Shown: piece by piece, positions 1 through 38,573 of the stretch | Layout: the number at the start of each line of letters is the position of its first letter | Numbering within the stretch: position 1 is the stretch's first letter | Source: Escherichia phage vB_EcoM_3HA14 | DNA: 64,000 nucleotides | Sequence record: MN342151.1 | Direction: 5' to 3' (one strand) | Translations under genes and position numbers: made by a program | Notes under the pieces: model-generated | What the model saw: the letters and a program-made list of their open reading frames with translations, nothing else | What the model was told of the DNA's origin: nothing | The model's database searches: none

Positions 1-2
1 AT

Positions 3-2192
3 ATTAAGATTAACGCCAAAACTAAACGTGCTCTTGATAATGAGTACCTCAAGCTTAAGAAGTGTGGTGTTGACACTTATGAAACCTACATGCGAGCTAA
101 AGAAACATCCTTCTGGATGAGTCAGCAAGCTATCAACGGTTGGAAAGCTGATGTAGAACTTATGCAGTTCCACGTTAAAGAACTTGACAAGTTAACTAAC
201 GAGTTGGCTGCTGAGGTTGAACCACACCTTCCACCAACTATTAAGACAAAAGGTAAAGTCACAGGTGAAGAATTTGCCAAGTCTTGGAACGAGTATGTAG
301 ATACATTTGGTCACGTTGATGGTTTGAAAAGGATTACCAAGTACCCTAAGACAAAGTATCGTGAACAGATGCGTGAAGGTGAGTTGAAGCAGTACCCTAT
401 CAAGCCGTATGGTAAGCCAACTACAAAGATTTTTAATGTTGAGAAGCGCAACTGCTACACTCCAACTAACACGGTCACAAAAGAAGAGTACCCTGAAGGT
501 TTTGTAGCAATGAAAGATGCTCGTGCAGTTTGTAATGAACTGAATGAGAAGATTGGCAAGAAGTGTAAAGATTGGAAGCCAGTTAAGACTGTGAAAACTG
601 TGAAGTACTACAACGTTCACGTTGTTAATCACTTTGAGTTAGAGTCTAGTCGCTACACTGGTTTGATTGATGCACCATTCACACCAATTGAGTTTGAAGT
701 TTCACGAATGACTCAGGTAGCTGTGGTGAAGGATTACTTAAAATCCGTTGGCTGGATTCCTGATGATTGGAACTATAAAAAAGATTCTGACGGTCGTCCT
801 ATCAAGGTTTGCAGGTTCAAAGACAACAAAAAGATGATTCGCAAACATCCTAAGTGGGATGAGATGGTTGAACGTTGTGGGTTGAACTATATTGAGCATG
901 AAGGTGTCTACTACATCGAGCATAACTGGTCTGTTAAGAAGTACACAGATGTGCTTGAGCCTTGCTTGATTAGGACTTCACCAAAGCTTACAGAATCTTC
1001 TTATGATACAATCGAAGGTGAGCTTGGACAGAAGATTGCGAAGTACTATACTTTGATGCACCGACGCAGGACTATCGAGAACTCAAAGGATGATGAGAAA
1101 GGTTGGCTGAACCAGATTCGTCCAGATGGTCGTTTGAGTGCAGGTGCAATGGTGTTTGGTACTTCTACTGGACGTATGACTCAGTATGGTATTGTGAACG
1201 TACCTTCTGGTGCTGCTGTGTACGGTGAGCCAATGAGGGCAGTGTGGATTTGTGAAGAGGGAACCAACGTAGTATCTGTTGATATGAACTCTGCACAGCT
1301 TGTACTACTCTGTAACTTCATGGGTGATAAAGACTTCACCAAAGCGGTAACAGAGGGTAAAGAAGAGATTGAGTTTGTCCGTCAAGAGGATGGAAGATAC
1401 TACTGTAAACACTTTGACCAGTATCTGAATCCAGAGATTGACAAGTATCTGCGTTACGACTCTGAAAACGATTTGTACGTAGTTTACTCAGGGACTGATG
1501 CTCACACTCTGAACAGTATCTACTTCAGCCTTAATGATGAGCAAGATATCTTGACTTGTCGTGCTACTCAGGATGAGAATCTTCTTCATGAGATTAGCAA
1601 GGGACGTAAGAAAGCTAAGAATGGTATCTATGCTTTGTTGTTCGGTGCAGGTGATGAGAAGTTTGCTAAAACAATTAAAGCAGCAACTACTCAGGAAGGT
1701 GCATTGACTAAGCAGACTTACTTTGTGCGTTTACCGAAGATTAAGAAACTGTTAGACAACTTGGAAGCTGATTTCAAAGCAACTAAGAAAGCACTTGAAG
1801 AGGTGTTTGGTAAAACTGCTGCAATCTCTAAAGGTGGTTTTGTGAAGGTTGCTGGGGCTTGGCTGTGGTGTAAGTCTCCACACAAACTCTTGAACTATTT
1901 GCTGATGGGTTCAGAAGCACAAGTTCAGAATGAAGCAATCAACCTTGCATGTCGTCGTATGATTGACGAAGGTTTGATGAAGTTGAATGGTCGTAAACCA
2001 GCTATTGGTGCTCGCTTACTCTGTGCTTACCACGATGAAACAAGCTGGGAATGTCCAGAGAGCATGACAGCAGATGTGAAAGCAGTAACTGACTGGTATT
2101 ATGGTCAAGCATCTAAGAACCTTGGGCTAAGAAAAGAGACATTGGTCACAGGTGCAGGGAAAGTTGGTAAATCGTGGCTTGAAGTCCACTAA
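3..2192 (+). CDS. DNA polymerase, family A (5'-truncated; gene continues upstream of window)
   Basis: Reading frame is open from window position 3 with no upstream stop. Pol A-like motifs seen: VSVDMNSAQL (motif A-like), RKKAKNGIYALLFGAG (motif B-like), LLCAYHDE (motif C-like). Confidence 0.85.
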   Translation: MKINAKTKRALDNEYLKLKKCGVDTYETYMRAKETSFWMSQQAINGWKADVELMQFHVKELDKLTNELAAEVEPHLPPTIKTKGKVTGEEFAKSWNEYVDTFGHVDGLKRITKYPKTKYREQMREGELKQYPIKPYGKPTTKIFNVEKRNCYTPTNTVTKEEYPEGFVAMKDARAVCNELNEKIGKKCKDWKPVKTVKTVKYYNVHVVNHFELESSRYTGLIDAPFTPIEFEVSRMTQVAVVKDYLKSVGWIPDDWNYKKDSDGRPIKVCRFKDNKKMIRKHPKWDEMVERCGLNYIEHEGVYYIEHNWSVKKYTDVLEPCLIRTSPKLTESSYDTIEGELGQKIAKYYTLMHRRRTIENSKDDEKGWLNQIRPDGRLSAGAMVFGTSTGRMTQYGIVNVPSGAAVYGEPMRAVWICEEGTNVVSVDMNSAQLVLLCNFMGDKDFTKAVTEGKEEIEFVRQEDGRYYCKHFDQYLNPEIDKYLRYDSENDLYVVYSGTDAHTLNSIYFSLNDEQDILTCRATQDENLLHEISKGRKKAKNGIYALLFGAGDEKFAKTIKAATTQEGALTKQTYFVRLPKIKKLLDNLEADFKATKKALEEVFGKTAAISKGGFVKVAGAWLWCKSPHKLLNYLLMGSEAQVQNEAINLACRRMIDEGLMKLNGRKPAIGARLLCAYHDETSWECPESMTADVKAVTDWYYGQASKNLGLRKETLVTGAGKVGKSWLEVH

Positions 2193-2197
2193 TAGTA

Positions 2198-2232
2198 TTG
2201 ACAAGGTGCTCATGGAAGAGTACCTTATACTA
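2198..2232 (+). promoter_or_regulatory. Possible sigma70-type promoter upstream of first small early gene
   Basis: TTGACA at 2198-2203; -10 candidates TACCTT/TATACT downstream with imperfect spacing; followed by AGGAG RBS and ATG at 2254. Confidence 0.25.
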
Positions 2233-2253
2233 TATATTGTATAGGAGACTTGT

Positions 2254-2454
2254 ATGACTATTTCAGAAATTGAAGTTCAACTGCAATGTGCTGGATATTC
2301 TCAAAGTGAGATTGAGGCTATGTGCATCATCATTTGCAGTAGCCATAAGCACCTCAAGCTTTCTAATGAAAATCTTCGCAAGGTTGATATTTTTATTGCT
2401 GGAGGTAAGATTATCAAGGATAAGACAGGCTACCTTAAAGGTGAACGTCTATGA
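2254..2454 (+). CDS. hypothetical protein (66 aa)
   Basis: ORF with AGGAG RBS 7 nt upstream; first gene after polymerase. Confidence 0.35.
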   Translation: MTISEIEVQLQCAGYSQSEIEAMCIIICSSHKHLKLSNENLRKVDIFIAGGKIIKDKTGYLKGERL

Positions 2455-2660
2455 GCCATCGTGGAAGAACTCATCTCGCCATGATGCAAGGTGCTTCAAA
2501 AGAGACTATCAAGAATCGGAAGAAAACTCTTTTTGACAGAATGAATAGACTCATCGATAATGCAAGCCTACCTAACTCTGAAAAGGTTTTCTTGAAAGGG
2601 AATCTGAAGAGTATTGCACAGGAACTTATTGACATTGAATTTTGGAGACACCAAAAATGA
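2451..2660 (+). CDS. hypothetical protein (69 aa)
   Basis: Start overlaps preceding stop (ATGA), suggesting translational coupling. Confidence 0.35.
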   Translation: MSHRGRTHLAMMQGASKETIKNRKKTLFDRMNRLIDNASLPNSEKVFLKGNLKSIAQELIDIEFWRHQK

Positions 2661-2848
2661 CATACGAAGAAGCTCTCGAAGCTATGAAACAGGGCAAGAA
2701 AGTTCGAAATGAAAATTTCACATCTGATGAGTTCTTTGAAATAAAAGACGGAAAGGTTGTATGTGAAATGGGTTACCCAATGGCTGCATGGTACAAGGGG
2801 GAACCTTGGCAGAAAACTGGATGGAGTATCTTTAATGAAACTTTATAG
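2657..2848 (+). CDS. small protein with DUF2829-like N-terminal motif (candidate Tad2-like)
   Basis: Chose internal ATG 2657 with GGAG RBS. N-terminus MTYEEALEAMKQGKKVRNENF resembles the conserved start recalled for DUF2829 phage proteins; assignment from memory only. Confidence 0.4.
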   Translation: MTYEEALEAMKQGKKVRNENFTSDEFFEIKDGKVVCEMGYPMAAWYKGEPWQKTGWSIFNETL

Positions 2849-2967
2849 CATTTGGGGAAGAGTTGGTGAAGGTTATGACTGGACTCTTCTTAAAACAAAT
2901 GTTAAAAGTAACGAGATAGCTTACTACAAAATCTATTACCATAAAACTTTTAGAGAGGTAGAGTATC

Positions 2968-3219
2968 GTGAGCAATAAAGAGCAAGAAGCTTTAGCAATC
3001 TTCAAGAGCGAAGACAAATCAATAGCTTTTGTCTCAGAGGCTTGGTGCAGGGATTTGGGGTATGATTGGTATCTCTTCTTATGCGCTAAGAAAGATGTTA
3101 AACCAGTTGATGAAACCCGATTCAAAGAACTGTATAATATCTGCCAAGAGGGTTATGAAGAACATTACGAAGGTTCTTTGAATCCTGTAAATTCAAAAGC
3201 TTCAGATTTATTTTATTGA
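2968..3219 (+). CDS. hypothetical protein (83 aa)
   Basis: ORF in co-directional early gene block. Confidence 0.35.
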   Translation: MSNKEQEALAIFKSEDKSIAFVSEAWCRDLGYDWYLFLCAKKDVKPVDETRFKELYNICQEGYEEHYEGSLNPVNSKASDLFY

Positions 3220-3229
3220 GAGGTTTGAA

Positions 3230-3475
3230 ATGTTAAAATTATTGATACCAGCTTTAGTAGTCCTACTGGTTGGATGTAACCCTTCTTATGAGAATAAGGA
3301 TGCTTCTTACAGACTTCCTCCAGAAATGCAAGACTGCAAGATTTATAAACTTAATGGTGATGCCATTAGCAGGGATGTTATTGTAGTTCGCTGCCCAAAT
3401 TCTCAGACGACAACTTCTTACAAGTATGGGAAGAATAGTCAGTCACACACCACAGTTTTTGATGGGGGATATTAA
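3230..3475 (+). CDS. putative lipoprotein (81 aa)
   Basis: N-terminus MLKLLIPALVVLLVGCN has a signal sequence plus lipobox (LVGC); GAGG RBS upstream. Confidence 0.5.
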   Translation: MLKLLIPALVVLLVGCNPSYENKDASYRLPPEMQDCKIYKLNGDAISRDVIVVRCPNSQTTTSYKYGKNSQSHTTVFDGGY

Positions 3476-3476
3476 T

Positions 3477-3683
3477 ATGCAGGTTCTGGTAAACTTTATC
3501 TATAAGTATGAAAACATCTTCAGCACTATGACTGTAGCTCAACGCAATCCAGTTATTCCACGAGAAGGGGAGACTGTTGAGATTAATGATTGGAACTACA
3601 GAGTTGAAGAGGTCAAGCATAAACTTAAAGATGGTTATGACCACCAAGTTGTAAATGTGTATTTAAAAGGTAAGTGGCAATGA
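3477..3683 (+). CDS. hypothetical protein (68 aa)
   Basis: ORF-track start at 3426 overlaps the lipoprotein gene; internal ATG 3477 has a GGGGGA RBS and abuts the upstream stop. Confidence 0.35.
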   Translation: MQVLVNFIYKYENIFSTMTVAQRNPVIPREGETVEINDWNYRVEEVKHKLKDGYDHQVVNVYLKGKWQ

Positions 3684-4213
3684 GTGAAAAAAGGTTATTC
3701 AAAGAGTCCTACAGTAATCTGAAGATGGGTTATCAAGGCTACTCAATACCTTGGTATGAAGATAAGAAAAAACAGTATTCAAACCCTTTTATATATCAAC
3801 CTGTAAAACTCTCTGTACTGGAGTTTTGGCATGAAACTGGAGCTACGCCATACCAATTTGACAACATGGAATATGCGCGTATTTGTAAAAGTCTTGGTGC
3901 AAGACAAGTTGATAATATCATTGAACATTTGAAGGATTTGTATAAAGATTTTGCTGGATACTTATACGAGAAACAGTTTGGGGAGTGCTTAAAATACCCA
4001 GATGGGTCACTTGTTCTGCTCTCATACATGTCTAATGGTAACATAAAAATTGCATACAAAGACCTGTGTGATAACTACTATGATTTTTATACTAGATTGA
4101 GACTACCATACCCAGATAGCTCCTTTTCCTTATCTAGCAATGCAATGACGCACTCTGGGAATATTGTTTCTGTTGAAAAATTAAAAAAGACGTGGGAGAA
4201 GAAAAATAAATGA
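3674..4213 (+). CDS. hypothetical protein (179 aa)
   Basis: Long ORF; start overlaps the previous stop. Confidence 0.45.
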   Translation: MAMSEKRLFKESYSNLKMGYQGYSIPWYEDKKKQYSNPFIYQPVKLSVLEFWHETGATPYQFDNMEYARICKSLGARQVDNIIEHLKDLYKDFAGYLYEKQFGECLKYPDGSLVLLSYMSNGNIKIAYKDLCDNYYDFYTRLRLPYPDSSFSLSSNAMTHSGNIVSVEKLKKTWEKKNK

Positions 4214-5310
4214 CAATTCTGTACAAACAAAATAAAGATGGTTCTTTCAACGTCTGGTCATGTGTTGCTGTAGGTGATAAAGTCGTCACAACTTATGGTA
4301 AAGAAAATGGCAAGATGATGTTTGAAGAGTACACAGCAGAGCCAAAGAACATCGGTAAGAAGAATGAGCGTAATGCTGAACAGCAAGCTCTTTTTGAAGT
4401 TGCTGCTAAGTACAAGAAGCAGGTTGACCGTAAAGGGTATGCTTACACAAAATCTGAAGCAGAGAATGTTGAAAAGGTTGGTGTACAGCTTGCTCAGGAT
4501 GCTTCCAAGATAAGTCACAAGAAGTATCTGGTATTTCCTGCCGATGCTCAACCTAAACTTGATGGGGTTCGTTGCAGGATTTCAAGAGATGCTGACTCAG
4601 AAAGTTTTACGGCATATTCTCGTGAGAACACGGTATACAACATTCCTGTAGAGTTGATTCCTGATGTTCTTCTTATGCTGAAACTGCACAAAGATGTTGA
4701 AGATTTCGATGGTGAGATTTATGCTCATGGTTGGGACTTGGAAGATATTGTATCTATGATTAAGAATGCTGACAATCCAGACCGTCACCTTCTTAAATTC
4801 TACTGGTATGATATCTGTGACAAGACTAAATCTTGGCCTGAGCGTCGTGAAGTTATTGATAATTCACCAATCGTTGAACTCGGTGATGCTTGCAGGGTTG
4901 TACCTGTTCAGACAATCCGTGTTAACTCTTGGGAAGAATTTGATAATGCTCATGACAACTGGGTTAAACTCAAGTTTGAAGGGGCAATGTATCGGTCAAT
5001 CTCACCAGATTCGTTCTATGAGTGTGGTCATCGCTCTTACTTCCTGATTAAGCACAAGAAGATGCACACACAGGAATTTAAAGTAACGGGTGTAAAGACT
5101 GATAAACGTGGTCATGGTAAGTTCGTTGTAGAGACTCTTCCTAACGTCTTTGTAGATGTTTCATGGAAAACTACACACGAGAAGAAAAAGTATCTTGCTG
5201 AACATCCTGAAGAGTTTATCGGGAAGCCTTTAACGGTTCAGTTCCAGAAGATGACTCGTAAGGGTTCTTTACAGTTCCCTGTTGGGCTAGTAATTCGAGA
5301 CTATGAATAG
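4210..5310 (+). CDS. ATP-dependent DNA ligase
   Basis: Adenylation motif I KxDG present as PKLDGVRC; size (366 aa) fits compact phage ligases. Confidence 0.8.
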   Translation: MTILYKQNKDGSFNVWSCVAVGDKVVTTYGKENGKMMFEEYTAEPKNIGKKNERNAEQQALFEVAAKYKKQVDRKGYAYTKSEAENVEKVGVQLAQDASKISHKKYLVFPADAQPKLDGVRCRISRDADSESFTAYSRENTVYNIPVELIPDVLLMLKLHKDVEDFDGEIYAHGWDLEDIVSMIKNADNPDRHLLKFYWYDICDKTKSWPERREVIDNSPIVELGDACRVVPVQTIRVNSWEEFDNAHDNWVKLKFEGAMYRSISPDSFYECGHRSYFLIKHKKMHTQEFKVTGVKTDKRGHGKFVVETLPNVFVDVSWKTTHEKKKYLAEHPEEFIGKPLTVQFQKMTRKGSLQFPVGLVIRDYE

Positions 5311-5318
5311 AGGTTAGT

Positions 5319-5468
5319 ATGTTTAGCACAATTATCCTGTTTGTTTTTGTTGTTTTATCATTATCTTACTTCATAAGTAAACTTTTAAGCATAACATACA
5401 AAGCAGCCTTAGCCCTTACTCTGTTGTCATTTGCAGTAAATGCAGCAGTTAGAATGTATTTAGTATAA
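5319..5468 (+). CDS. small hydrophobic protein (49 aa)
   Basis: Not in ORF track (under 60 aa). ATG 5319; product MFSTIILFVFVVLSLSYFISKLL... is largely hydrophobic. Confidence 0.3.
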   Translation: MFSTIILFVFVVLSLSYFISKLLSITYKAALALTLLSFAVNAAVRMYLV

Positions 5469-5473
5469 AATTG

Positions 5474-5501
5474 TTGACATGAGTAACCTGACGGGTATAC
5501 T
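5474..5501 (+). promoter_or_regulatory. sigma70-like promoter inside a palindrome
   Basis: TTGACA (5474-5479), 16-nt spacer, TATACT (5496-5501). Flanked by inverted repeat CTGACGGG...CCCGTCAG with inner CTATATAG palindromes; GGAGG RBS before ATG 5546. Confidence 0.5.
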
Positions 5502-5545
5502 ACCTATATAGAAAATTATATAGGAACCCGTCAGAAACCTCGGAG

Positions 5546-5932
5546 GTGTTTATGAAAAAGTTACTTGTTGGTGTCATTGCTATTGGTATGAGTTTTAGTG
5601 CAGCAGCTATGAAGATGCCTGAAGCAAACTTTAATGGTGTCGCTTTAGAATCTTGTAAGATTGTACAGAAAATCGCTTCAAATGCTGGAGAGTTGACTAA
5701 ACCGTTGTCTGCTCAGACTGTTCAAGAAATGACTGATAAGATGGTTGACTACAACTACCATTTTATGGGAGATTACTATGACAGATTAGCAGATGAGATG
5801 GTTACTCAGAACGTTGACCTTCTTGATAGCAAAGGTATTGAGACTGTAGAAGATGTGAAAGACAATTTTATGCGTGAGTCTTTCAAAGGTGTTCAATACT
5901 TTATTGAAAATCGTCACTGCATGGGTTTATAA
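5546..5932 (+). CDS. secreted or periplasmic protein (128 aa)
   Basis: N-terminal signal-peptide-like segment MFMKKLLVGVIAIGMSFSAAA; own promoter and strong RBS. Confidence 0.5.
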   Translation: MFMKKLLVGVIAIGMSFSAAAMKMPEANFNGVALESCKIVQKIASNAGELTKPLSAQTVQEMTDKMVDYNYHFMGDYYDRLADEMVTQNVDLLDSKGIETVEDVKDNFMRESFKGVQYFIENRHCMGL

Positions 5933-5934
5933 TC

Positions 5935-6138
5935 ATGAAGAAGAACATCTGTAGAGCAGACTACGGTGAAGTAGTCGATGATGACGGAGTAGTTATTTAC
6001 AGAGTTTGGGCAAGTGATTATTCAACCGTTGTAGAGTCTTTAGATAACTACATCAATGGGACTCGTGAAAACGTCAGAGCAACTAATCTTGATTCGTTAA
6101 TAGACACTTCTCGAAAACGGAGAAAGAAAGATGAATGA
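5935..6138 (+). CDS. hypothetical protein (67 aa)
   Basis: ORF in early block. Confidence 0.35.
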   Translation: MKKNICRADYGEVVDDDGVVIYRVWASDYSTVVESLDNYINGTRENVRATNLDSLIDTSRKRRKKDE

Positions 6139-33541: not shown

Positions 33542-33617
33542 TGGAGTATCGGAAGGGACTCGAACCCTCATAAACCTGTTTTGCAGACAGGCACATAACC
33601 ATTTCTGACACCGACAC
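33542..33617 (-). tRNA. tRNA-Cys (GCA)
   Basis: Manual fold: acceptor GTGTCGG/CCGATAC, anticodon arm CCTGT-CTGCAAA-ACAGG, T-arm GAGGG-TTCGAGT-CCCTT, CCA encoded. Confidence 0.75.
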
Positions 33618-33623
33618 ATAATT

Positions 33624-33716
33624 TGGAGGAAGATACCAGACTTGAACTGGTACGCCGATTTCTCGGTTACTGGCAGTTTAGCAAACTGCTCCCTTACCTT
33701 TTAGGGTTAATCTTCC
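33624..33716 (-). tRNA. tRNA-Ser (GCT), long variable arm
   Basis: 93 nt; acceptor GGAAGAT/ATCTTCC perfect; anticodon loop TTGCTAA; long variable arm; T-loop TTCAAGT. Confidence 0.75.
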
Positions 33717-33717
33717 A

Positions 33718-34452
33718 TTATTTGTTCAGAGCTTCTTTCATCTCTGGAGTTGCGATAGTATCAATCACACCAGTTTTACATGAATCATCAAACCAGCTTG
33801 GTAGAACATTCGCAAGGAAACCATTAATATTTGTTTTCAGATATTCTGCAATCAGTGCTGCTTCATCTGCAATCATCTGAGTTACTTCGTTAGCATATGC
33901 AGTAATCTTTGCAATACCCTCATTAATCGCTGTAACGGCCTGTGTAGCGAGTTCAGAGATTGTATCTAGTCCTTGGTCGATTGCATCTTGCAAATCGCTT
34001 AGAACGCCATTTACAGCGTCTATGGAGGTATTAATCAAATCCATCGCTTTATTACCGTACTCGGTAGCTACGCCCATGATACCGCTAAACGGTGTACATC
34101 CAACCTGTTCACCTGCTGCTCCCATAACGTTAGAGTAACCTTTAGCTACTTGCATACGTTGTGAAAACTCATCTACAGACTTTTGTCCATACTCAGTAAG
34201 TGTACTTGTCGTTGAAGTTGTACTTCCAAGGCTTGTTGTGAAGCTTCCTAATAAGGCTGTTGTCAGTCCAGCAGCAACTAAAATCTGTTGTGTAGCTGGG
34301 TCTGTTACAGAACTAATTGAGTTAACTAATGATTGAGAGGCAGCTATAGTACCACCAAGAACTGCTGCACCAGTAATAAGAGGGTTTGAAAAACCATTAC
34401 CAGTTTTAAGGAGATTAAAAATCTCTTTACTTTGTTCTGTCATCTCTTTCAT
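33718..34452 (-). CDS. hypothetical Ala/Thr/Ser-rich protein (244 aa) within tRNA cluster
   Basis: ORF-track start (GTG at 34515) would run through a tRNA-Phe; ATG at 34452 has a GGTG RBS and avoids the tRNA. Confidence 0.5.
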   Translation of the reverse strand: MKEMTEQSKEIFNLLKTGNGFSNPLITGAAVLGGTIAASQSLVNSISSVTDPATQQILVAAGLTTALLGSFTTSLGSTTSTTSTLTEYGQKSVDEFSQRMQVAKGYSNVMGAAGEQVGCTPFSGIMGVATEYGNKAMDLINTSIDAVNGVLSDLQDAIDQGLDTISELATQAVTAINEGIAKITAYANEVTQMIADEAALIAEYLKTNINGFLANVLPSWFDDSCKTGVIDTIATPEMKEALNK

Positions 34453-34468
34453 TATGCACCTATAAAGT

Positions 34469-34545
34469 TGGTAGCCCATCGGGATTTGAACCCTGTTCTC
34501 ATGTTTTTCAGACACGCGCTTTAACCATATAAGCTAATTGAGCTA
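34469..34545 (-). tRNA. tRNA-Phe (GAA), atypical acceptor/D spacing
   Basis: Anticodon arm CGTGT-CTGAAAA-ACATG; D-arm GCTT-ATATGGTTA-AAGC; T-loop TTCAAAT; acceptor pairs only with a 1-2 nt offset and T-stem is weak. Confidence 0.55.
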
Positions 34546-34551
34546 TTAAAT

Positions 34552-34628
34552 TGGGGTGACCTACGGGAATCGAACCCGTATAGACCATGTTCACAGCATG
34601 GGTCATTATCCATTTATGATAAGGCCAC
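34552..34628 (-). tRNA. tRNA-His (GTG)
   Basis: Anticodon arm CCATG-CTGTGAA-CATGG; D-arm TCAT/ATGA; acceptor GTGGCCT/AGGTCAC; CCA encoded. Confidence 0.75.
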
Positions 34629-34659
34629 ATTTAAGGACTCTCGTAAGAATCCTTAGAAG

Positions 34660-34735
34660 TGGCAGCAGTATAAGGATTTGAACCTTAATCTTTCAGCTTC
34701 AGAGGCTGGAGCATTGCCAGTTATGCTATACTGCT
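34660..34735 (-). tRNA. tRNA-Gln (CTG)
   Basis: 76 nt; anticodon loop CTCTGAA; D-arm GCAT/ATGC; acceptor AGCAGTA/TACTGCT perfect. Confidence 0.7.
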
Positions 34736-34741
34736 AATATT

Positions 34742-34820
34742 TGGTACTCCATATCGGATTCGAACCGATACATAACACAGATTTTAAATCTGGCCTCTCT
34801 GCCAATTGGAGTAATGGAGC
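34742..34820 (-). tRNA. tRNA with Leu anticodon (TAA) but short variable arm
   Basis: Anticodon loop TTTAAAA; D-loop AATTGGCAGAG (Leu-like); variable region about 7 nt; discriminator A; T-arm ATCGG-TTCGAAT-CCGAT. Confidence 0.6.
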
Positions 34821-34822
34821 AT

Positions 34823-34898
34823 TGGCGGGGGATGATGGAATTGAACCATCTTCTTCGATTTCAAAGACCGAGGTTTTAACCTTGTAAACTAATCCCCT
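34823..34898 (-). tRNA. tRNA-Gln (TTG)
   Basis: Anticodon arm TCGGT-CTTTGAA-ATCGA; D-arm GTTT/AAAC; position 1:72 mismatched. Confidence 0.65.
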
Positions 34899-35124
34899 AA
34901 CGAACTCTTGAAAGAATATATGCGTTATTGCAAGTATCCTTATTTTCAGGTAGTGATGTTTCGAAGATAACTTGCTTAAGTTCTAATCCAGCAAAGTTAT
35001 AAACAACCTTTCTAACTTCTAACGGGTCACATTGCCAACCAACCGCTATAAAGAAAGTATCTCCAAATCTACCTGTTTCAATCTTGTGGTCATCTTTATG
35101 TTTTTCAACTATGAGTTTATACAT
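34897..35124 (-). CDS. hypothetical protein (75 aa) between tRNA genes
   Basis: ORF fills the gap between two tRNAs. Confidence 0.35.
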   Translation of the reverse strand: MYKLIVEKHKDDHKIETGRFGDTFFIAVGWQCDPLEVRKVVYNFAGLELKQVIFETSLPENKDTCNNAYILSRVR

Positions 35125-35142
35125 AATGTTACCTATTAAATT

Positions 35143-35219
35143 TGGTGCAGAATAGAGGATTCGAACCCCTAACTAACAACTTCGTAGGTTGCTGCTCTGT
35201 CCATTTGAACTAATTCTGC
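35143..35219 (-). tRNA. tRNA-Arg (ACG)
   Basis: Acceptor GCAGAAT/ATTCTGC perfect; anticodon arm GCAAC-CTACGAA-GTTGT. Confidence 0.75.
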
Positions 35220-35381
35220 AATATCCTTTTGAGATTCCTGTCTAGCTCTCTTCTTATCTCTTCTGAGAAAGCGTTTACGATGGTCTGTACGCCATTTGTA
35301 ATAATCTTCTTCACCATCATGCGCTGCACAGCAGCCACAACTTGCAATTTCAACTTTACCATGTCTACCATAAGGCTTCAT
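35169..35381 (-). CDS. hypothetical Cys-rich basic protein (70 aa)
   Basis: ORF whose 3' 51 nt overlap tRNA-Arg; CxC plus basic KRxRR-like segment. May be real or chance. Confidence 0.3.
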   Translation of the reverse strand: MKPYGRHGKVEIASCGCCAAHDGEEDYYKWRTDHRKRFLRRDKKRARQESQKDIAELVQMDRAATYEVVS

Positions 35382-35397
35382 AGGAATCTCCTAAAAT

Positions 35398-35475
35398 TGG
35401 TGTTCCAAGACGGATTCGAACCGTCACTAATACAAGGTTTGAGCTTGCATCCTCTGCCAATTGGGATACTGGAAC
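35398..35475 (-). tRNA. tRNA with Leu anticodon (CAA) but short variable arm
   Basis: Anticodon arm GCAAG-CTCAAAC-CTTGT; D-loop AATTGGCAGAG; variable region about 6 nt; discriminator A. Confidence 0.6.
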
Positions 35476-35476
35476 T

Positions 35477-35551
35477 TGGTACTCGCTGAAGGACTTGAAC
35501 CTTCTTCACCAACTTGTAAGGATGGGGCTTTACCATATAAACTAAGCGAGC
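35477..35551 (-). tRNA. tRNA-Val (TAC)
   Basis: Anticodon loop CTTACAA; T-arm GAAGG-TTCAAGT-CCTTC; separated by 1 nt from the neighbouring tRNA. Confidence 0.7.
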
Positions 35552-35646
35552 TTTGAAGAGGTCTGAAGCTGTGCCGCTAACTCAACTCCGTGGAATTTGT
35601 TACGGTCTTCAGTTGACTCAAGCGGTCTTTCACTTGACCTCAAAAT

Positions 35647-35723
35647 TGGTGCTGCTCACAGGACTCGAACCTGCATCTCCATCCTTACAAGGGATGTGCA
35701 ATAGCCAATTATACGAAAGCAGC
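35647..35723 (-). tRNA. tRNA-Thr (TGT)
   Basis: Anticodon arm CATCC-CTTGTAA-GGATG perfect; T-loop TTCGAGT. Confidence 0.75.
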
Positions 35724-35729
35724 ATTATT

Positions 35730-35804
35730 TGGAGCATCCAGAGGGAATCGAACCCTCAACCTCAGTTTGGAAGACTGTAATTTTCCCATTTAAACTATGG
35801 ATGC
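35730..35804 (-). tRNA. tRNA-Gly (TCC)
   Basis: Acceptor GCATCCA/TGGATGC perfect; anticodon loop CTTCCAA. Confidence 0.75.
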
Positions 35805-35810
35805 ACTAAT

Positions 35811-35886
35811 TGGTGGAGAAGCAGGGAATTGAACCCTGTACTTAAGTTTGCAAAACTTATGTTTTAACCATGTAAACTACATCCCC
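35811..35886 (-). tRNA. tRNA-Ala (TGC)
   Basis: Anticodon arm TAAGT-TTTGCAA-ACTTA perfect; D-arm GTTT/AAAC; G3:U70 wobble (Ala identity element) present. Confidence 0.8.
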
Positions 35887-35892
35887 ATTGTT

Positions 35893-35968
35893 TGGTACAG
35901 GTGGAGGGAATTGAACCCATCGTCTTACTGATTAAGAGTCAGCCGCATAACCATTTTGCTACACCTGC
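35893..35968 (-). tRNA. tRNA-Lys (CTT)
   Basis: Anticodon arm GCTGA-CTCTTAA-TCAGT; T-stem only 3 bp (GGG/CCC). Confidence 0.6.
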
Positions 35969-35975
35969 ATTAATT

Positions 35976-36052
35976 TGGTACACCTAGAGAGATTCGAACT
36001 CACACTGAGCAGATTCTAAGTCTGCTGCCTCTTCCAATTGGGCTATAGGTGC
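35976..36052 (-). tRNA. tRNA with Leu anticodon (TAG) but short variable arm
   Basis: 77 nt; anticodon arm GCAGA-CTTAGAA-TCTGC perfect; D-loop AATTGGAAGAG; 5-nt variable loop; discriminator A. Confidence 0.65.
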
Positions 36053-36305
36053 ATTAAATCTTTGTAGAGAACTGCTAAGACGCCAAAGCAACAATGGTAT
36101 CAAATGCCTTAACAATTCTCTAAAAAGACCTATTGGCCTCTGCATAGTCTTGCTTAATCCGGTGACTAGAACCTTTGGAGAGCTTGATACTATCTCTTCT
36201 CCGTGACACCTACTAGGTGCTTTACCAGTGCCGTGTACGCCAATACACGAAGAGGAAACCTGAAACACTTGCTCGAACAAATAGTCTCAGCTTTAAATCT
36301 TATTA

Positions 36306-36395
36306 GGCGGTAGATAAAGGAGTCGAACCCTCACCGTATCTCTACAATGGCAACTGTTTTCAAGACAGTTTGGCTTCCATTAGCCGCTACCTACC
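36306..36395 (-). tRNA. tRNA-Ser (TGA), long variable arm
   Basis: About 90 nt; anticodon arm ACTGT-CTTGAAA-ACAGT; long variable arm; 3' CC encoded but not the terminal A. Confidence 0.7.
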
Positions 36396-36408
36396 CCTAA
36401 TAAGACTT

Positions 36409-36491
36409 TGGCATGGGACGGAGGATTCGAACCCCTTTGAGTAAGTTTTGGAGGCTTACGCACATGCCTTAGTGTCTTAACATCGTCCCAT
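36409..36491 (-). tRNA. atypical tRNA-like gene, possibly tRNA-Trp (CCA)
   Basis: Perfect 7-bp acceptor ATGGGAC/GTCCCAT and T-arm. Anticodon stem GTAAG/CTTAC encloses a 9-nt loop CCTCCAAAA (CCA anticodon if the closing pair is unpaired); D region about 8 nt longer than canonical. Confidence 0.5.
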
Positions 36492-36656
36492 ACTATATTT
36501 CGAAGCTTACCCTGTTATCTCAACACTGTCAAGCTTCTTCTCAGATTATTTACATGTTCTGGAAAACATGAGATACAGACCACCTCCTTATGAGATTGAC
36601 TCTTTCAAGTCAATGCGGAGACCCATAAAGGTCGTCATAGTAATCTGCTAACTAAT

Positions 36657-36724
36657 TGGCAGTCAAGGTAGGAGTCGAACCTACTTACTATTAAAGGGAG
36701 CTACCCTTCAGCAACTATCCGACT
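36657..36724 (-). tRNA. tRNA-like element (truncated or non-canonical)
   Basis: Canonical T-arm GTAGG-TTCGACT-CCTAC and CCA end, but only about 68 nt to the best acceptor match; no convincing anticodon arm. Confidence 0.35.
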
Positions 36725-36785
36725 TTCGTTTATCTCTTAACGCGTATCCAAGATAACTTACTCGTGTTGTCTTGACCATTAAAAT

Positions 36786-36862
36786 TGGCACACCCTACAG
36801 GATTCGAACCTGTAACTGACGGTTTAGAAGACCGTTGCTCTATCCGTTTGAACTAAGGGTGC
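36786..36862 (-). tRNA. tRNA-Arg (TCT)
   Basis: Anticodon arm ACGGT-CTTCTAA-ACCGT perfect; T-arm ACAGG-TTCGAAT-CCTGT. Confidence 0.75.
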
Positions 36863-37066
36863 ATTATCTTTAAAGGCTCTCTTAGAAAACCCTTAAAGAT
36901 GCCCACTTTATTAATCATACCGTGGGCTAGTACGCCAAATTCTTTAACAGGGAGTTGGAATACCCTGCTGGTGTTTAGCCTATTAAGCTACTGCCAGAAA
37001 AACATTATCGTTTGCATTTATTTTTAAGTTTTTAAAATAGACGCTACGCTAACGAAAACTAAGGTT

Positions 37067-37095
37067 ATCTTAAAGTGGTCACATCTAAATGTCAA
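37067..37095 (-). promoter_or_regulatory. possible internal sigma70-like promoter in tRNA cluster spacer
   Basis: On - strand: TTGACA (37090-37095), 17-nt spacer, TAAGAT (37067-37072). Confidence 0.3.
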
Positions 37096-37109
37096 CAACT
37101 TTATGAAAT

Positions 37110-37187
37110 TGGTTGTAGGTGAGGGTATCGAACCCTCTTCTAACGGTTATCAGCCGTTTGCATTACCATTTATGCTAACCCACAATT
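37110..37187 (-). tRNA. tRNA-Ile (GAT)
   Basis: Anticodon arm AACGG-CTGATAA-CCGTT perfect; D-arm GCAT/ATGC. Confidence 0.75.
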
Positions 37188-37189
37188 GG

Positions 37190-37266
37190 AGGTTCAGGTG
37201 GGAATCGAACCCACATTCATAGGGCTTATGAAACCCTTGCATTACCTTATCTGCGACTGAACCATT
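37190..37266 (-). tRNA. tRNA-Met (CAT), elongator-like
   Basis: Acceptor GGTTCAG/CTGAACC perfect; anticodon arm AGGGT-TTCATAA-GCCCT; 1:72 paired, so not initiator-like. Confidence 0.7.
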
Positions 37267-37344
37267 ATAAGTTGCCCCTTTGTAGAGAACTGATTGAGTG
37301 GGTGTTTCCAGCCGCGCATGTGTTCTTCAGTTAAGGGGCGAATT

Positions 37345-37421
37345 TGGTAGAAGTGGAGGGATTCGAACCCGTCGCCTGTCAGATTAAAAGTCTGCCGCAT
37401 CACCATTCTGCTACACTTCCA
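37345..37421 (-). tRNA. tRNA-Lys (TTT)
   Basis: Anticodon region GCAGA-CTTTTAA-TCTGA; weak T-stem like the CTT isoacceptor. Confidence 0.65.
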
Positions 37422-37606
37422 TTAAATCATCTTTGCAGTAACCTACGCAAACCTTGCTAAAGGGTTTGTAGAGTCATCTCTTATAAGCTAATCTAGAATC
37501 ATGCTCAAGAGACTCTTCGGCACTCATGGGACGACTGGTTAGCTCCATAAGTCACTGCAAAGAGGATTACCAGACCGTATTTATCTTAAGTGCTTCCATT
37601 ACACCA

Positions 37607-37643
37607 ACACGCCGTAACGTGTGAAGGAATCGAACCTTCGCCT
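37607..37643 (-). ncRNA. orphan T-arm-like hairpin with adjacent stem-loop (tRNA-like module without acceptor or anticodon)
   Basis: Sense strand GAAGG-TTCGATT-CCTTC followed by ACACG-TTACGG-CGTGT; no pairing acceptor found within 100 nt. Confidence 0.3.
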
Positions 37644-37844
37644 TTTCTTTACCAGAGAAATAGATTGTTTATTGTTTGCTGTAAACGGTCTTCTGTAAAA
37701 TTGTTGGAACCAGACCAAGTTTTAAATTTTTCAAATTAAATTGGCTTGAAATATTAAAATTGCTTGCTGTATTTGGTCTTCTGCTCCTTTAAAGAATACT
37801 CGTAAGAACTCTTTAAGGGAGGGGCTAAAAAGCCCTCTCAAATT

Positions 37845-37921
37845 TGGCGGTTACGAAGGGATTCGAACCCTCATCATCCTCCGTGACAGGGAGGTATTTT
37901 GACCAGTTAAACTACATAACC
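37845..37921 (-). tRNA. tRNA-Asp (GTC)
   Basis: Anticodon arm CCTCC-CTGTCAC-GGAGG perfect; T-arm GAGGG-TTCGAAT-CCCTT. Confidence 0.75.
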
Positions 37922-37927
37922 TTTATT

Positions 37928-38015
37928 TGGTGCGCCGTGAAGGAGTCGAACCTCCCGAGTCATAATGACAAGTGATTTACAGTCACCACCGCTTCCATCT
38001 ACGGGATAACGACGC
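37928..38015 (-). tRNA. tRNA-Tyr (GTA), long variable arm
   Basis: 88 nt; anticodon arm GGTGA-CTGTAAA-TCACT; variable-arm hairpin TGTCA..TGACT. Confidence 0.7.
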
Positions 38016-38083
38016 ATTTTATTCTATTCAGGCTAAGGACTTGCACCTTACAAATCGGTGAGCAATCGCTTCTCTCCCAAATC

Positions 38084-38161
38084 TTGGCGGTTAGTCAGGG
38101 ATTCGAACCCTGTACCATTCGGTTAACAGCCGACCGCACATGCCTTATGTGCTTCCTAACC
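38084..38161 (-). tRNA. tRNA-Asn (GTT)
   Basis: Anticodon loop CTGTTAA; D-arm GCAC/GTGC; T-arm CAGGG-TTCGAAT-CCCTG. Confidence 0.7.
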
Positions 38162-38245
38162 ATGTTAGTATTACCAGACCGTATCTTTTCATTTTTTGCC
38201 TATAAAAAATTTTAAGTGTTTGCTGTAAACGGCCTTCTGTAAATT

Positions 38246-38322
38246 TGGAGGCGGGTGTAGGAGTCGAACCTACCGATAACATGCTAATGAGACATGTGAG
38301 ACACCCTTTCTCTATACCCGCA
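38246..38322 (-). tRNA. tRNA with CAT anticodon (Met or Ile2), 1:72 mismatch
   Basis: Anticodon arm CATGT-CTCATTA-GCATG; first acceptor pair unpaired (T:C). Confidence 0.6.
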
Positions 38323-38409
38323 ATTCTTAATGACCAGACCAAATCTTTTTTGGATTTCTATGCGCGAAATTGAAAAGTTTGTTTGCTGTAATTGGTCTTC
38401 TGTCAAAAC

Positions 38410-38487
38410 TGGCATTCCCGAAGGGACTTGAACCCTCAAACCACACCTTGAAAGGGTGTTGACTTTACCTAATTTGTCTACGGGAAT
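38410..38487 (-). tRNA. tRNA-Glu (TTC)
   Basis: Acceptor ATTCCCG/CGGGAAT perfect; anticodon arm ACACC-CTTTCAA-GGTGT perfect. Confidence 0.75.
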
Positions 38488-38493
38488 ATAATT

Positions 38494-38573
38494 TGGTCTC
38501 CGTTGAAGGATTTGAACCTTCGACCCCTTGCTCCCAAAGCAAGTGCTGCTAAACCAAACTGAGCTAAACGGAG
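38494..38573 (-). tRNA. tRNA-Pro (TGG)
   Basis: Acceptor CTCCGTT/AACGGAG perfect; anticodon arm CTTGC-TTTGGGA-GCAAG perfect. Confidence 0.75.

Follow-up and report, generated by a model that had tools for sequence, protein, structure and literature searches.

A 63-residue protein from an accessory cassette of Escherichia phage vB_EcoM_3HA14 is a remote Tad2 homologue with a putatively altered ligand pocket

The 63-amino acid product of a small gene of Escherichia phage vB_EcoM_3HA14 (record MN342151.1; the window analyzed here is the whole 64,000-nucleotide stretch) is a remote homologue of the Tad2/DUF2829 proteins with the Tad2 core fold. It is not a canonical Tad2 and belongs to a separate clade of about 60-amino acid proteins with invariant motifs of their own. 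Among the families of phage immune-signal sponges, Tad2 is both the most widespread and the most plastic in function; its fold and family are known, and what is new is an uncharacterized short clade with a putatively altered pocket. The first-pass annotation, which had proposed a candidate of the Tad2 family of Thoeris anti-defence proteins, was right about the fold and the family but went too far on function.

The open reading frame is a real gene, as had been claimed. It runs over 63 codons from the ATG at 2657 to the TAG at 2846-2848, its start is preceded by a GGAG sequence (Table 1), and its product, MTYEEALEAMKQGKKVRNENFTSDEFFEIKDGKVVCEMGYPMAAWYKGEPWQKTGWSIFNETL, is identical to the annotated gp57 of Shigella phage Sf15 (Ounavirinae, Mooglevirus), where it is labeled "hypothetical". 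Over its first 8 kb, the window, itself of a Mooglevirus, is 98.9% identical to Sf15. The ATGA overlap suggests that the preceding 69-amino acid ORF (2451-2660) and the 63-amino acid gene may be translationally coupled, and the close packing around the gene is a usual trait of co-translated phage operons. The gene lies on the same strand as the DNA polymerase gene and upstream of the DNA ligase gene. It had been placed directly after the polymerase gene on the plus strand; the strand holds but the adjacency does not, because the polymerase gene ends at 2192 and ORFs 2254-2454 and 2451-2660 intervene, which makes it the third small ORF thereafter. Judging from this position, the gene would be expressed early. 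The neighbors offer no functional context, because none of ten small ORFs nearby has a Pfam match, and a scan of positions 1-6000 for σ70 promoters and terminators revealed no enrichment over shuffled sequences.

Table 1. Features of the locus in window coordinates and, below them, residues of the 63-amino acid protein aligned with the ligand contacts of SPO1 Tad2; the residue rows follow the HHalign mapping, in which positions 33-50 fall in the low-confidence part and have a register uncertain by about one residue.
Feature	Position	Strand	Remarks
CDS, 63-aa minimal Tad2-fold protein	2657..2848	+	Identical to Sf15 gp57; PHROG 3474
Clade-invariant codons in the CDS	F21 2717-2719, E25 2729-2731, E37 2765-2767, W45 2789-2791, W56 2822-2824	+	
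Shine-Dalgarno-like GGAG	2644..2647	+	9 nt 5' of ATG 2657; sequence read directly
ATGA start/stop overlap with preceding 69-aa ORF	2657..2660	+	Also left junction of accessory cassette
47-aa ORF (Sf15 gp58)	2835..2978	+	Start overlaps 3' end of 63-aa gene; shares the cassette
Accessory cassette, 308 bp	2661..2968	.	63-aa gene and overlapping 47-aa ORF; missing in Shigella phage Sf14
SPO1 Tad2 W25	F21		Clade F 93%, W 1%
SPO1 Tad2 N26	T22		Clade T 57%, S 16% (T/S 73%)
SPO1 Tad2 I63	V34		Clade I 67%, V 13%, L 13%
SPO1 Tad2 T65	C36		Clade D 31%, T 22%, C 19%
SPO1 Tad2 D67	M38		Clade D 41%
SPO1 Tad2 H71	M42		Clade M 40%, F 22%
SPO1 Tad2 W73	W45		Clade W 42%, F 34%
SPO1 Tad2 S76	G48		Clade G 30%
SPO1 Tad2 T78	E49		Clade E 36%
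SPO1 Tad2 D79	P50		Clade D/E 40%

Some other elements of the window were observed. It opens within a family-A DNA polymerase gene (1-2192, plus strand), of which the listed ORF (90-2192) is the 3' part, the full gene being 2700 nt in Sf15. The intergenic region directly 3' of this gene (2196-2247) holds a block of about 48 bp that contains a perfect TTGACA followed, 22 nt further on, by TATACT; the block is present in a single copy in the window. Many Felixounavirus genomes have this block at 92-98% identity, versus only about 76% for the flanking DNA. It is annotated as a "promoter" in phage AYO145A and, in other phages, lies beside genes for HNH homing endonucleases, and it could be a promoter for the small-gene block or a homing-endonuclease target. 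An 81-amino acid ORF (3230-3475, plus strand) that starts with MLKLLIPALVVLLVGC has a lipoprotein-like signal peptide and a lipobox, and corresponds to Sf15 gp60, a "predicted membrane protein". On the minus strand, positions 33542-38573 carry a cluster of 26 tRNA genes for most of the amino acids, as is usual in Felix O1-like phages.

The resemblance of the N terminus to the DUF2829 signature, which the first-pass annotation had noticed, goes beyond chance. The sole Pfam match is PF11195 (Tad2-like/DUF2829; E 3.7e-5), with a borderline score of 24.6 bits that misses the gathering cutoff of 25 bits by 0.4 bits, and the match is limited to the N-terminal half of the model (profile positions 1-40 of 73). 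When a 166-sequence non-redundant domain profile of the clade was compared by HHalign with 52 canonical SPO1-Tad2 homologues, a probability of 93% (E 3e-7) was obtained, and a narrower clade profile gave 77% (E 2e-5). The alignment with the 166-sequence profile is confident over residues 1-32, and in the extended mode it covers the full length and is interrupted once, by a deletion of 24 residues that faces Tad2 residues 39-62. In agreement with this homology, a canonical Tad2 HMM searched against all window ORFs matched only 2657-2848. In PHROGs, the protein is assigned to phrog_3474 (E 3e-33), which is labeled as of unknown function. A sequence search of the PDB with the single protein as query yielded only noise, and with family profiles the top matches were Tad2 but weak (E 0.05-0.7, over the N-terminal 20-24 residues); NCBIfam contains no model matching either the 63-amino acid protein or SPO1 Tad2.

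The distance between the two clades was evident from their HMM scores, which are at most 21 bits across clades versus 60-110 bits within each of them. PF11195 is reached by few members of the short clade (18 of 70 at E<=0.01 and 13 of 127 at E<=0.001), and, among the matches listed, a precomputed PF11195 assignment is carried by 0 of 120 relatives of the 63-amino acid protein versus 120 of 120 SPO1-Tad2 homologues. The clade is, however, continuous with PF11195, because some short-form members score over the cutoff (P0175 with 28.7 bits, P0180 with 30.1 and P0215 with 42.6, which have Trp at position 21 or tandem domains), phage proteins of 60-63 amino acids and similar shape bear the DUF2829/Tad2-like label in UniProt (virus sp. 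ctML55, Klebsiella phage KpS110), and canonical Tad2 proteins can be as short as 69-72 amino acids.

The AlphaFold2 model, built with an alignment of 70 relatives (pLDDT 89.5, pTM 0.73), consists of helices at residues 3-11 and 50-53 and strands at 16-18, 27-30, 33-36 and 56-58, i.e., an N-terminal helix on an antiparallel β-sheet, a short α3 and a terminal β-strand, as in the Tad2 fold. A Foldseek search of the PDB with this model returned Tad2 structures (SPO1, Spt, Mod) as the best 12 matches, with TM values up to 0.70, followed by a drop to about 0.3. The part missing from the 63-amino acid protein is the β2-β3 insertion with helix α2, the region that is variable in Tad2, and α1 is kept. 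Tad2 is a homotetramer in which V-shaped dimers form through α2/β2 and interlock along α1, and its pockets lie between non-dimeric protomers.

In SPO1 Tad2, 1''-3' gcADPR is contacted by W25, N26, W73 and D79 together with I63, T65, D67, H71, S76 and T78. The invariant residues in an alignment of 52 canonical sequences are R22, W25, N26, G27, K28, T65, S76, Q77, D79 and W85, and all solved Tad2 proteins retain R-x-G-W-N-G-K and W-x2-S-x-[TS]-D-x-L-A-x-D-W, irrespective of whether the ligand is 3'cADPR, His-ADPR or c-di-GMP. The N-terminal register of the 63-amino acid protein is unambiguous (G13-x2-V16-x4-F21 corresponds to G17-x2-V20-x4-W25), and minimal canonical Tad2 proteins of 72 amino acids align with it without gaps over residues 1-21. 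Seven of the 10 contact positions show a non-conservative change. The β1-β2 motif G-W-N-G-K, in which W25 stacks on the ligand and N26 binds the phosphates, is replaced by N20-F21-T22-S23-D24. As for the C-terminal motif W73-x2-S76-Q-T78-D79-x-L-A-x-D-W85, W45 and W56 are retained and S76, T78 and D79 become G48, E49 and P50, with a register certain to about ±1 residue. The two positions that sandwich the ligand are both still aromatic. The alignment with characterized Tad2 proteins thus bears out the homology but not the gcADPR contacts, and the proposed Tad2 candidate stands as a remote homologue with the core fold and not as a canonical Tad2.

The clade has its own set of near-invariant residues, i.e., A6, G13, [H/N]18, F21 (93%), E25 (97%), E37 (95%), G39, Y40, W51, G55 and W56. 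According to the model, these would sit in the parts of the fold from which the Tad2 pocket is built (loops β1-β2, β3-β4 and β4-α3, and helix α3), at the pocket end of the sheet. Because canonical Tad2 proteins may be of nearly the same length, pocket chemistry and not size would be the defining difference of the clade. The canonical site is kept in about 99% of Tad2 proteins (Li et al.), and, therefore, the clade would be classed as non-binding for gcADPR according to the criteria of that study. Binding of 3'cADPR by the 63-amino acid protein is not supported by its sequence, and since the gcADPR contacts are replaced, the protein may act as a gcADPR sponge against Thoeris, yet such a role is not inferable from the sequence.

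The clade is large and scattered. The 63-amino acid protein was found by tblastn in 455 phage genomes (169 of Klebsiella, 109 of Escherichia, 74 of Salmonella, and others), and an exhaustive profile search gathered the PHROG 3474 clade into 231 clusters at 50% identity. Members occur in at least six unrelated virulent phage lineages, with a protein identity of 45-60% across six of them, and include phages of Enterobacteria that are T5-like (in the pre-early region), T4-like, rV5-like, phi92-like or Chaseviridae. Copies were confirmed in Mooglevirus, Seunavirus PVP-SE1, Chaseviridae, the T4-like Jiaodavirus and Stephanstirmvirinae. The copy of the T5-like Epseptimavirus lies inside the left terminal repeat, i.e., in pre-early DNA; the first-step-transfer DNA of T5 itself has no homologue, and only T5-like phages of the Epseptimavirus type have one. 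No neighboring or partner gene is conserved across the lineages examined.

The domain also appears in longer polypeptides. In the Stephanstirmvirinae copies (L006 1992-2363 and L007 1992-2420) it is fused to an extension ending in ...YKGKGHNKLQKRKKK, and these two copies share with P0125, P0129, P0130, P0136 and P0250 an arrangement of domain, variable linker and very basic conserved tail, ...(I/L)YKGKGHNKL(Q/K)K(R/G)KKK. Other C-terminal fusions comprise a SEC-C motif (P0188, P0243) and Cys-rich or zinc-finger-like tails (P0264, P0215, P0218, P0145), whereas fusions to known sponge families were not found among 127 representatives. In four metagenomic representatives (P0180, P0208, P0215 and P0257), the domain is naturally duplicated in tandem on a single chain, and P0257 combines one short-type copy with one canonical PF11195 copy (54 bits).

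Within Ounavirinae, the 63-amino acid gene is a dispensable accessory gene. The blastn breakpoints with Sf14 lie at window positions 2100-2660 and 2969-3684, the flanks are 97% identical, and at this locus Sf15 and Sf14 differ by the 308-bp cassette alone, whose junctions share [A/G]TGA microhomology at start/stop overlaps. In Felixounavirus proper, the DNA similarity ends at about window position 2662, right at the start of the gene, and no family match was found in Mijalis or in Felixounavirus Shy. The 47-amino acid ORF is not obligately linked to the Tad2-like gene, since Shy carries a 57%-identical homologue of that ORF without it. Moreover, gp067 of Shigella phage vB_SflM_004 (P0008, 83 amino acids) is a deletion-fusion in which residues 1-16 (helix α1) are swapped for the N terminus of another small protein, and the Tad2-like gene is probably inactivated in that phage. 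Presence or absence between near-identical phages is reported to be the signature by which Tad2 was discovered.

By analogy with the characterized members of the fold, the 63-amino acid protein might well be a self-associating Tad2-fold counter-defence sponge with a specificity other than that of canonical Tad2, a reading that we favor tentatively. The protein is a stand-alone minimal Tad2 fold (α1, small antiparallel sheet, short helix, final strand) and would self-associate as Tad2 does. At one end of the sheet, the loops β1-β2 (F21/T22/E25) and β3-β4 (E37-x-G39-Y40) and the W45...W51 segment would close around a small host signal, probably derived from a nucleotide, and sequester it. This ligand may be a molecule other than 3'cADPR, and it is probably not recognized in the way that canonical Tad2 recognizes 3'cADPR, because the polar contacts are replaced by a clade-invariant set with two Glu and with Phe for Trp. 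We infer the oligomerization, the pocket, the ligand binding and the anti-defence role. Several properties speak for a sponge: the protein is below 100 amino acids and acidic like SPO1 Tad2 (pI 4.8 versus 4.9), and its size, its Sf14 indel and the pre-early location in T5-like phages fit the description of sponges as short (<100 amino acids) accessory phage genes (10.1101/2025.07.12.664507). The tandem duplications are consistent with domain-domain pairing. The conserved residues of the putative pocket, the presence or absence of the cassette between phages with 97%-identical flanks, the scatter of the clade over unrelated lineages and the known plasticity of Tad2 specificity also agree with this reading. 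Against a sponge stand the loss of the insertion with helix α2, on which the V-shaped dimer of Tad2 depends, the seven changed contact positions, the lack of fusions to known sponge families among the 127 representatives and the zinc-finger-like, SEC-C or basic tails of some relatives. A more specific version of the proposal, which looks doubtful at present, is that the whole clade constitutes a distinct class of minimal Tad2-fold sponges for a signal other than 3'cADPR, with a pocket remodeled around Phe, two Glu and Trp and an assembly based on dimers and not tetramers; that signal could be one used by enterobacterial defence systems that still lack a known viral sponge.

The protein might instead be a bona fide but shorter Tad2, with a pocket like that of SPO1 Tad2 in which it sequesters 3'cADPR (1''-3' gcADPR), the signal of type I Thoeris. 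The common core fold and the remote homology agree with this possibility, as do F21 and W45, which keep the ligand-stacking positions aromatic, and many members of the clade have an acidic residue at the equivalent of D79 or beside it (E49 in 36% and D/E at position 50 in 40% of the clade, within the register limits of Table 1). Small size is no obstacle either, with canonical Tad2 proteins going down to 69-72 amino acids, and coliphage T4 also has an anti-Thoeris sponge. However, the invariant GWNGK and SQTD motifs are missing (W25 to F, N26 to T, T65 to C, S76 to G and D79 to P), the Pfam score is under the cutoff, the cross-clade HMM scores stay far below the intra-clade ones and the α2 dimer element is absent. 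The missing contacts disfavor this explanation, which we consider improbable.

It is possible, although we would not expect it, that the Tad2-like fold has been re-used to bind or inhibit a host protein, such as a defence effector or a housekeeping enzyme, or to bind a nucleic acid in the early stage of host takeover. The invariant residues are two glutamates and several aromatics without the canonical nucleotide contacts, the tetramer-forming α2 is missing, and the DUF2829 protein AcrIIA7 was first reported as an anti-CRISPR; the zinc-finger-like, SEC-C or highly basic tails of relatives, including the one ending in ...YKGKGHNKLQKRKKK, would also fit protein or nucleic-acid binding. On the contrary, all the Tad2-fold proteins characterized so far, AcrIIA7/HgmTad2 included, are signal sponges, the conserved positions coincide with the elements of the Tad2 pocket, and no partner gene accompanies the clade across lineages. 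Finally, a chance ORF or a decaying gene without function would agree with the absence from Sf14 and Mijalis and with the disruption in vB_SflM_004, but it is extremely improbable and is effectively refuted by the conservation pattern, i.e., the 45-60% identity over six lineages, the 231 clusters and the invariant residues, to which a confident compact fold, a ribosome-binding site and coupled start and stop codons can be added.

Should the preferred sponge reading be correct, a minimal clade with a different but strictly conserved pocket, present in hundreds of enterobacterial phages of the therapeutic type, could reveal a new ligand specificity and show the smallest scaffold that works as a sponge. 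Differences in host range between phages as close to each other as Sf15 and Sf14 could likewise be explained by the cassette. If no signal is bound, the protein would be the first case of a Tad2 fold that serves a purpose other than that of a sponge, and such a role would advise caution against an "anti-Thoeris" annotation for every DUF2829-like match.

As to known systems, the helical Sequestin and the hexameric Lockin were rejected as counterparts because their folds differ from that of the 63-amino acid protein. No paper describing the short clade was found in literature searches, and a motif search in the available portion of the supplementary tables of two 2025 surveys, on Tad2 and on sponges, found no member, which is weak evidence of absence. 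The closest reference is SPO1 Tad2 (gp34.65; PDB 8SME/8SMF/8SMG, 8WJE), the founder of the Thoeris anti-defence 2 family (PF11195, DUF2829). Both are small acidic phage proteins with aromatics at the two ligand-stacking positions, and they share the α1 motif A-x6-G-x2-V (A6, G13 and V16 correspond to A10, G17 and V20), the antiparallel sheet, the short α3 and a final strand ending in W-x-I-V (W56 corresponds to W85). In contrast, SPO1 Tad2 has 89 amino acids, and its residues ~39-62, which hold the β2-β3 insertion and the α2 dimer interface, are missing in the 63-amino acid protein; W25-N26-G27-K28 are changed to F21-T22-S23-D24, T65, D67, S76, T78 and D79 to C36, M38, G48, E49 and P50 (to within about one residue), and the invariant E25 and E37 are new in the short clade. 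HgmTad2/AcrIIA7 (PDB 8KBI) and ModTad2 (PDB 9EIB), at a sequence identity of 20-23%, differ from the 63-amino acid protein in keeping both GWNGK and W..S.(T/S)D..LA.DW and in having long insertions that form a second pocket for CDN or cUMP. The specificity of Tad2 is highly plastic and extends to 3'cADPR, His-ADPR, N7-cADPR, CDNs and cUMP/cCMP. The proteins of PHROG 3474 and PHROG 22208 and the 60-63-amino acid DUF2829 proteins of UniProt share the short architecture and are of the same clade or near neighbors, the members of PHROG 22208 being distinguished from the 63-amino acid protein by a C-terminal extension with a basic tail.
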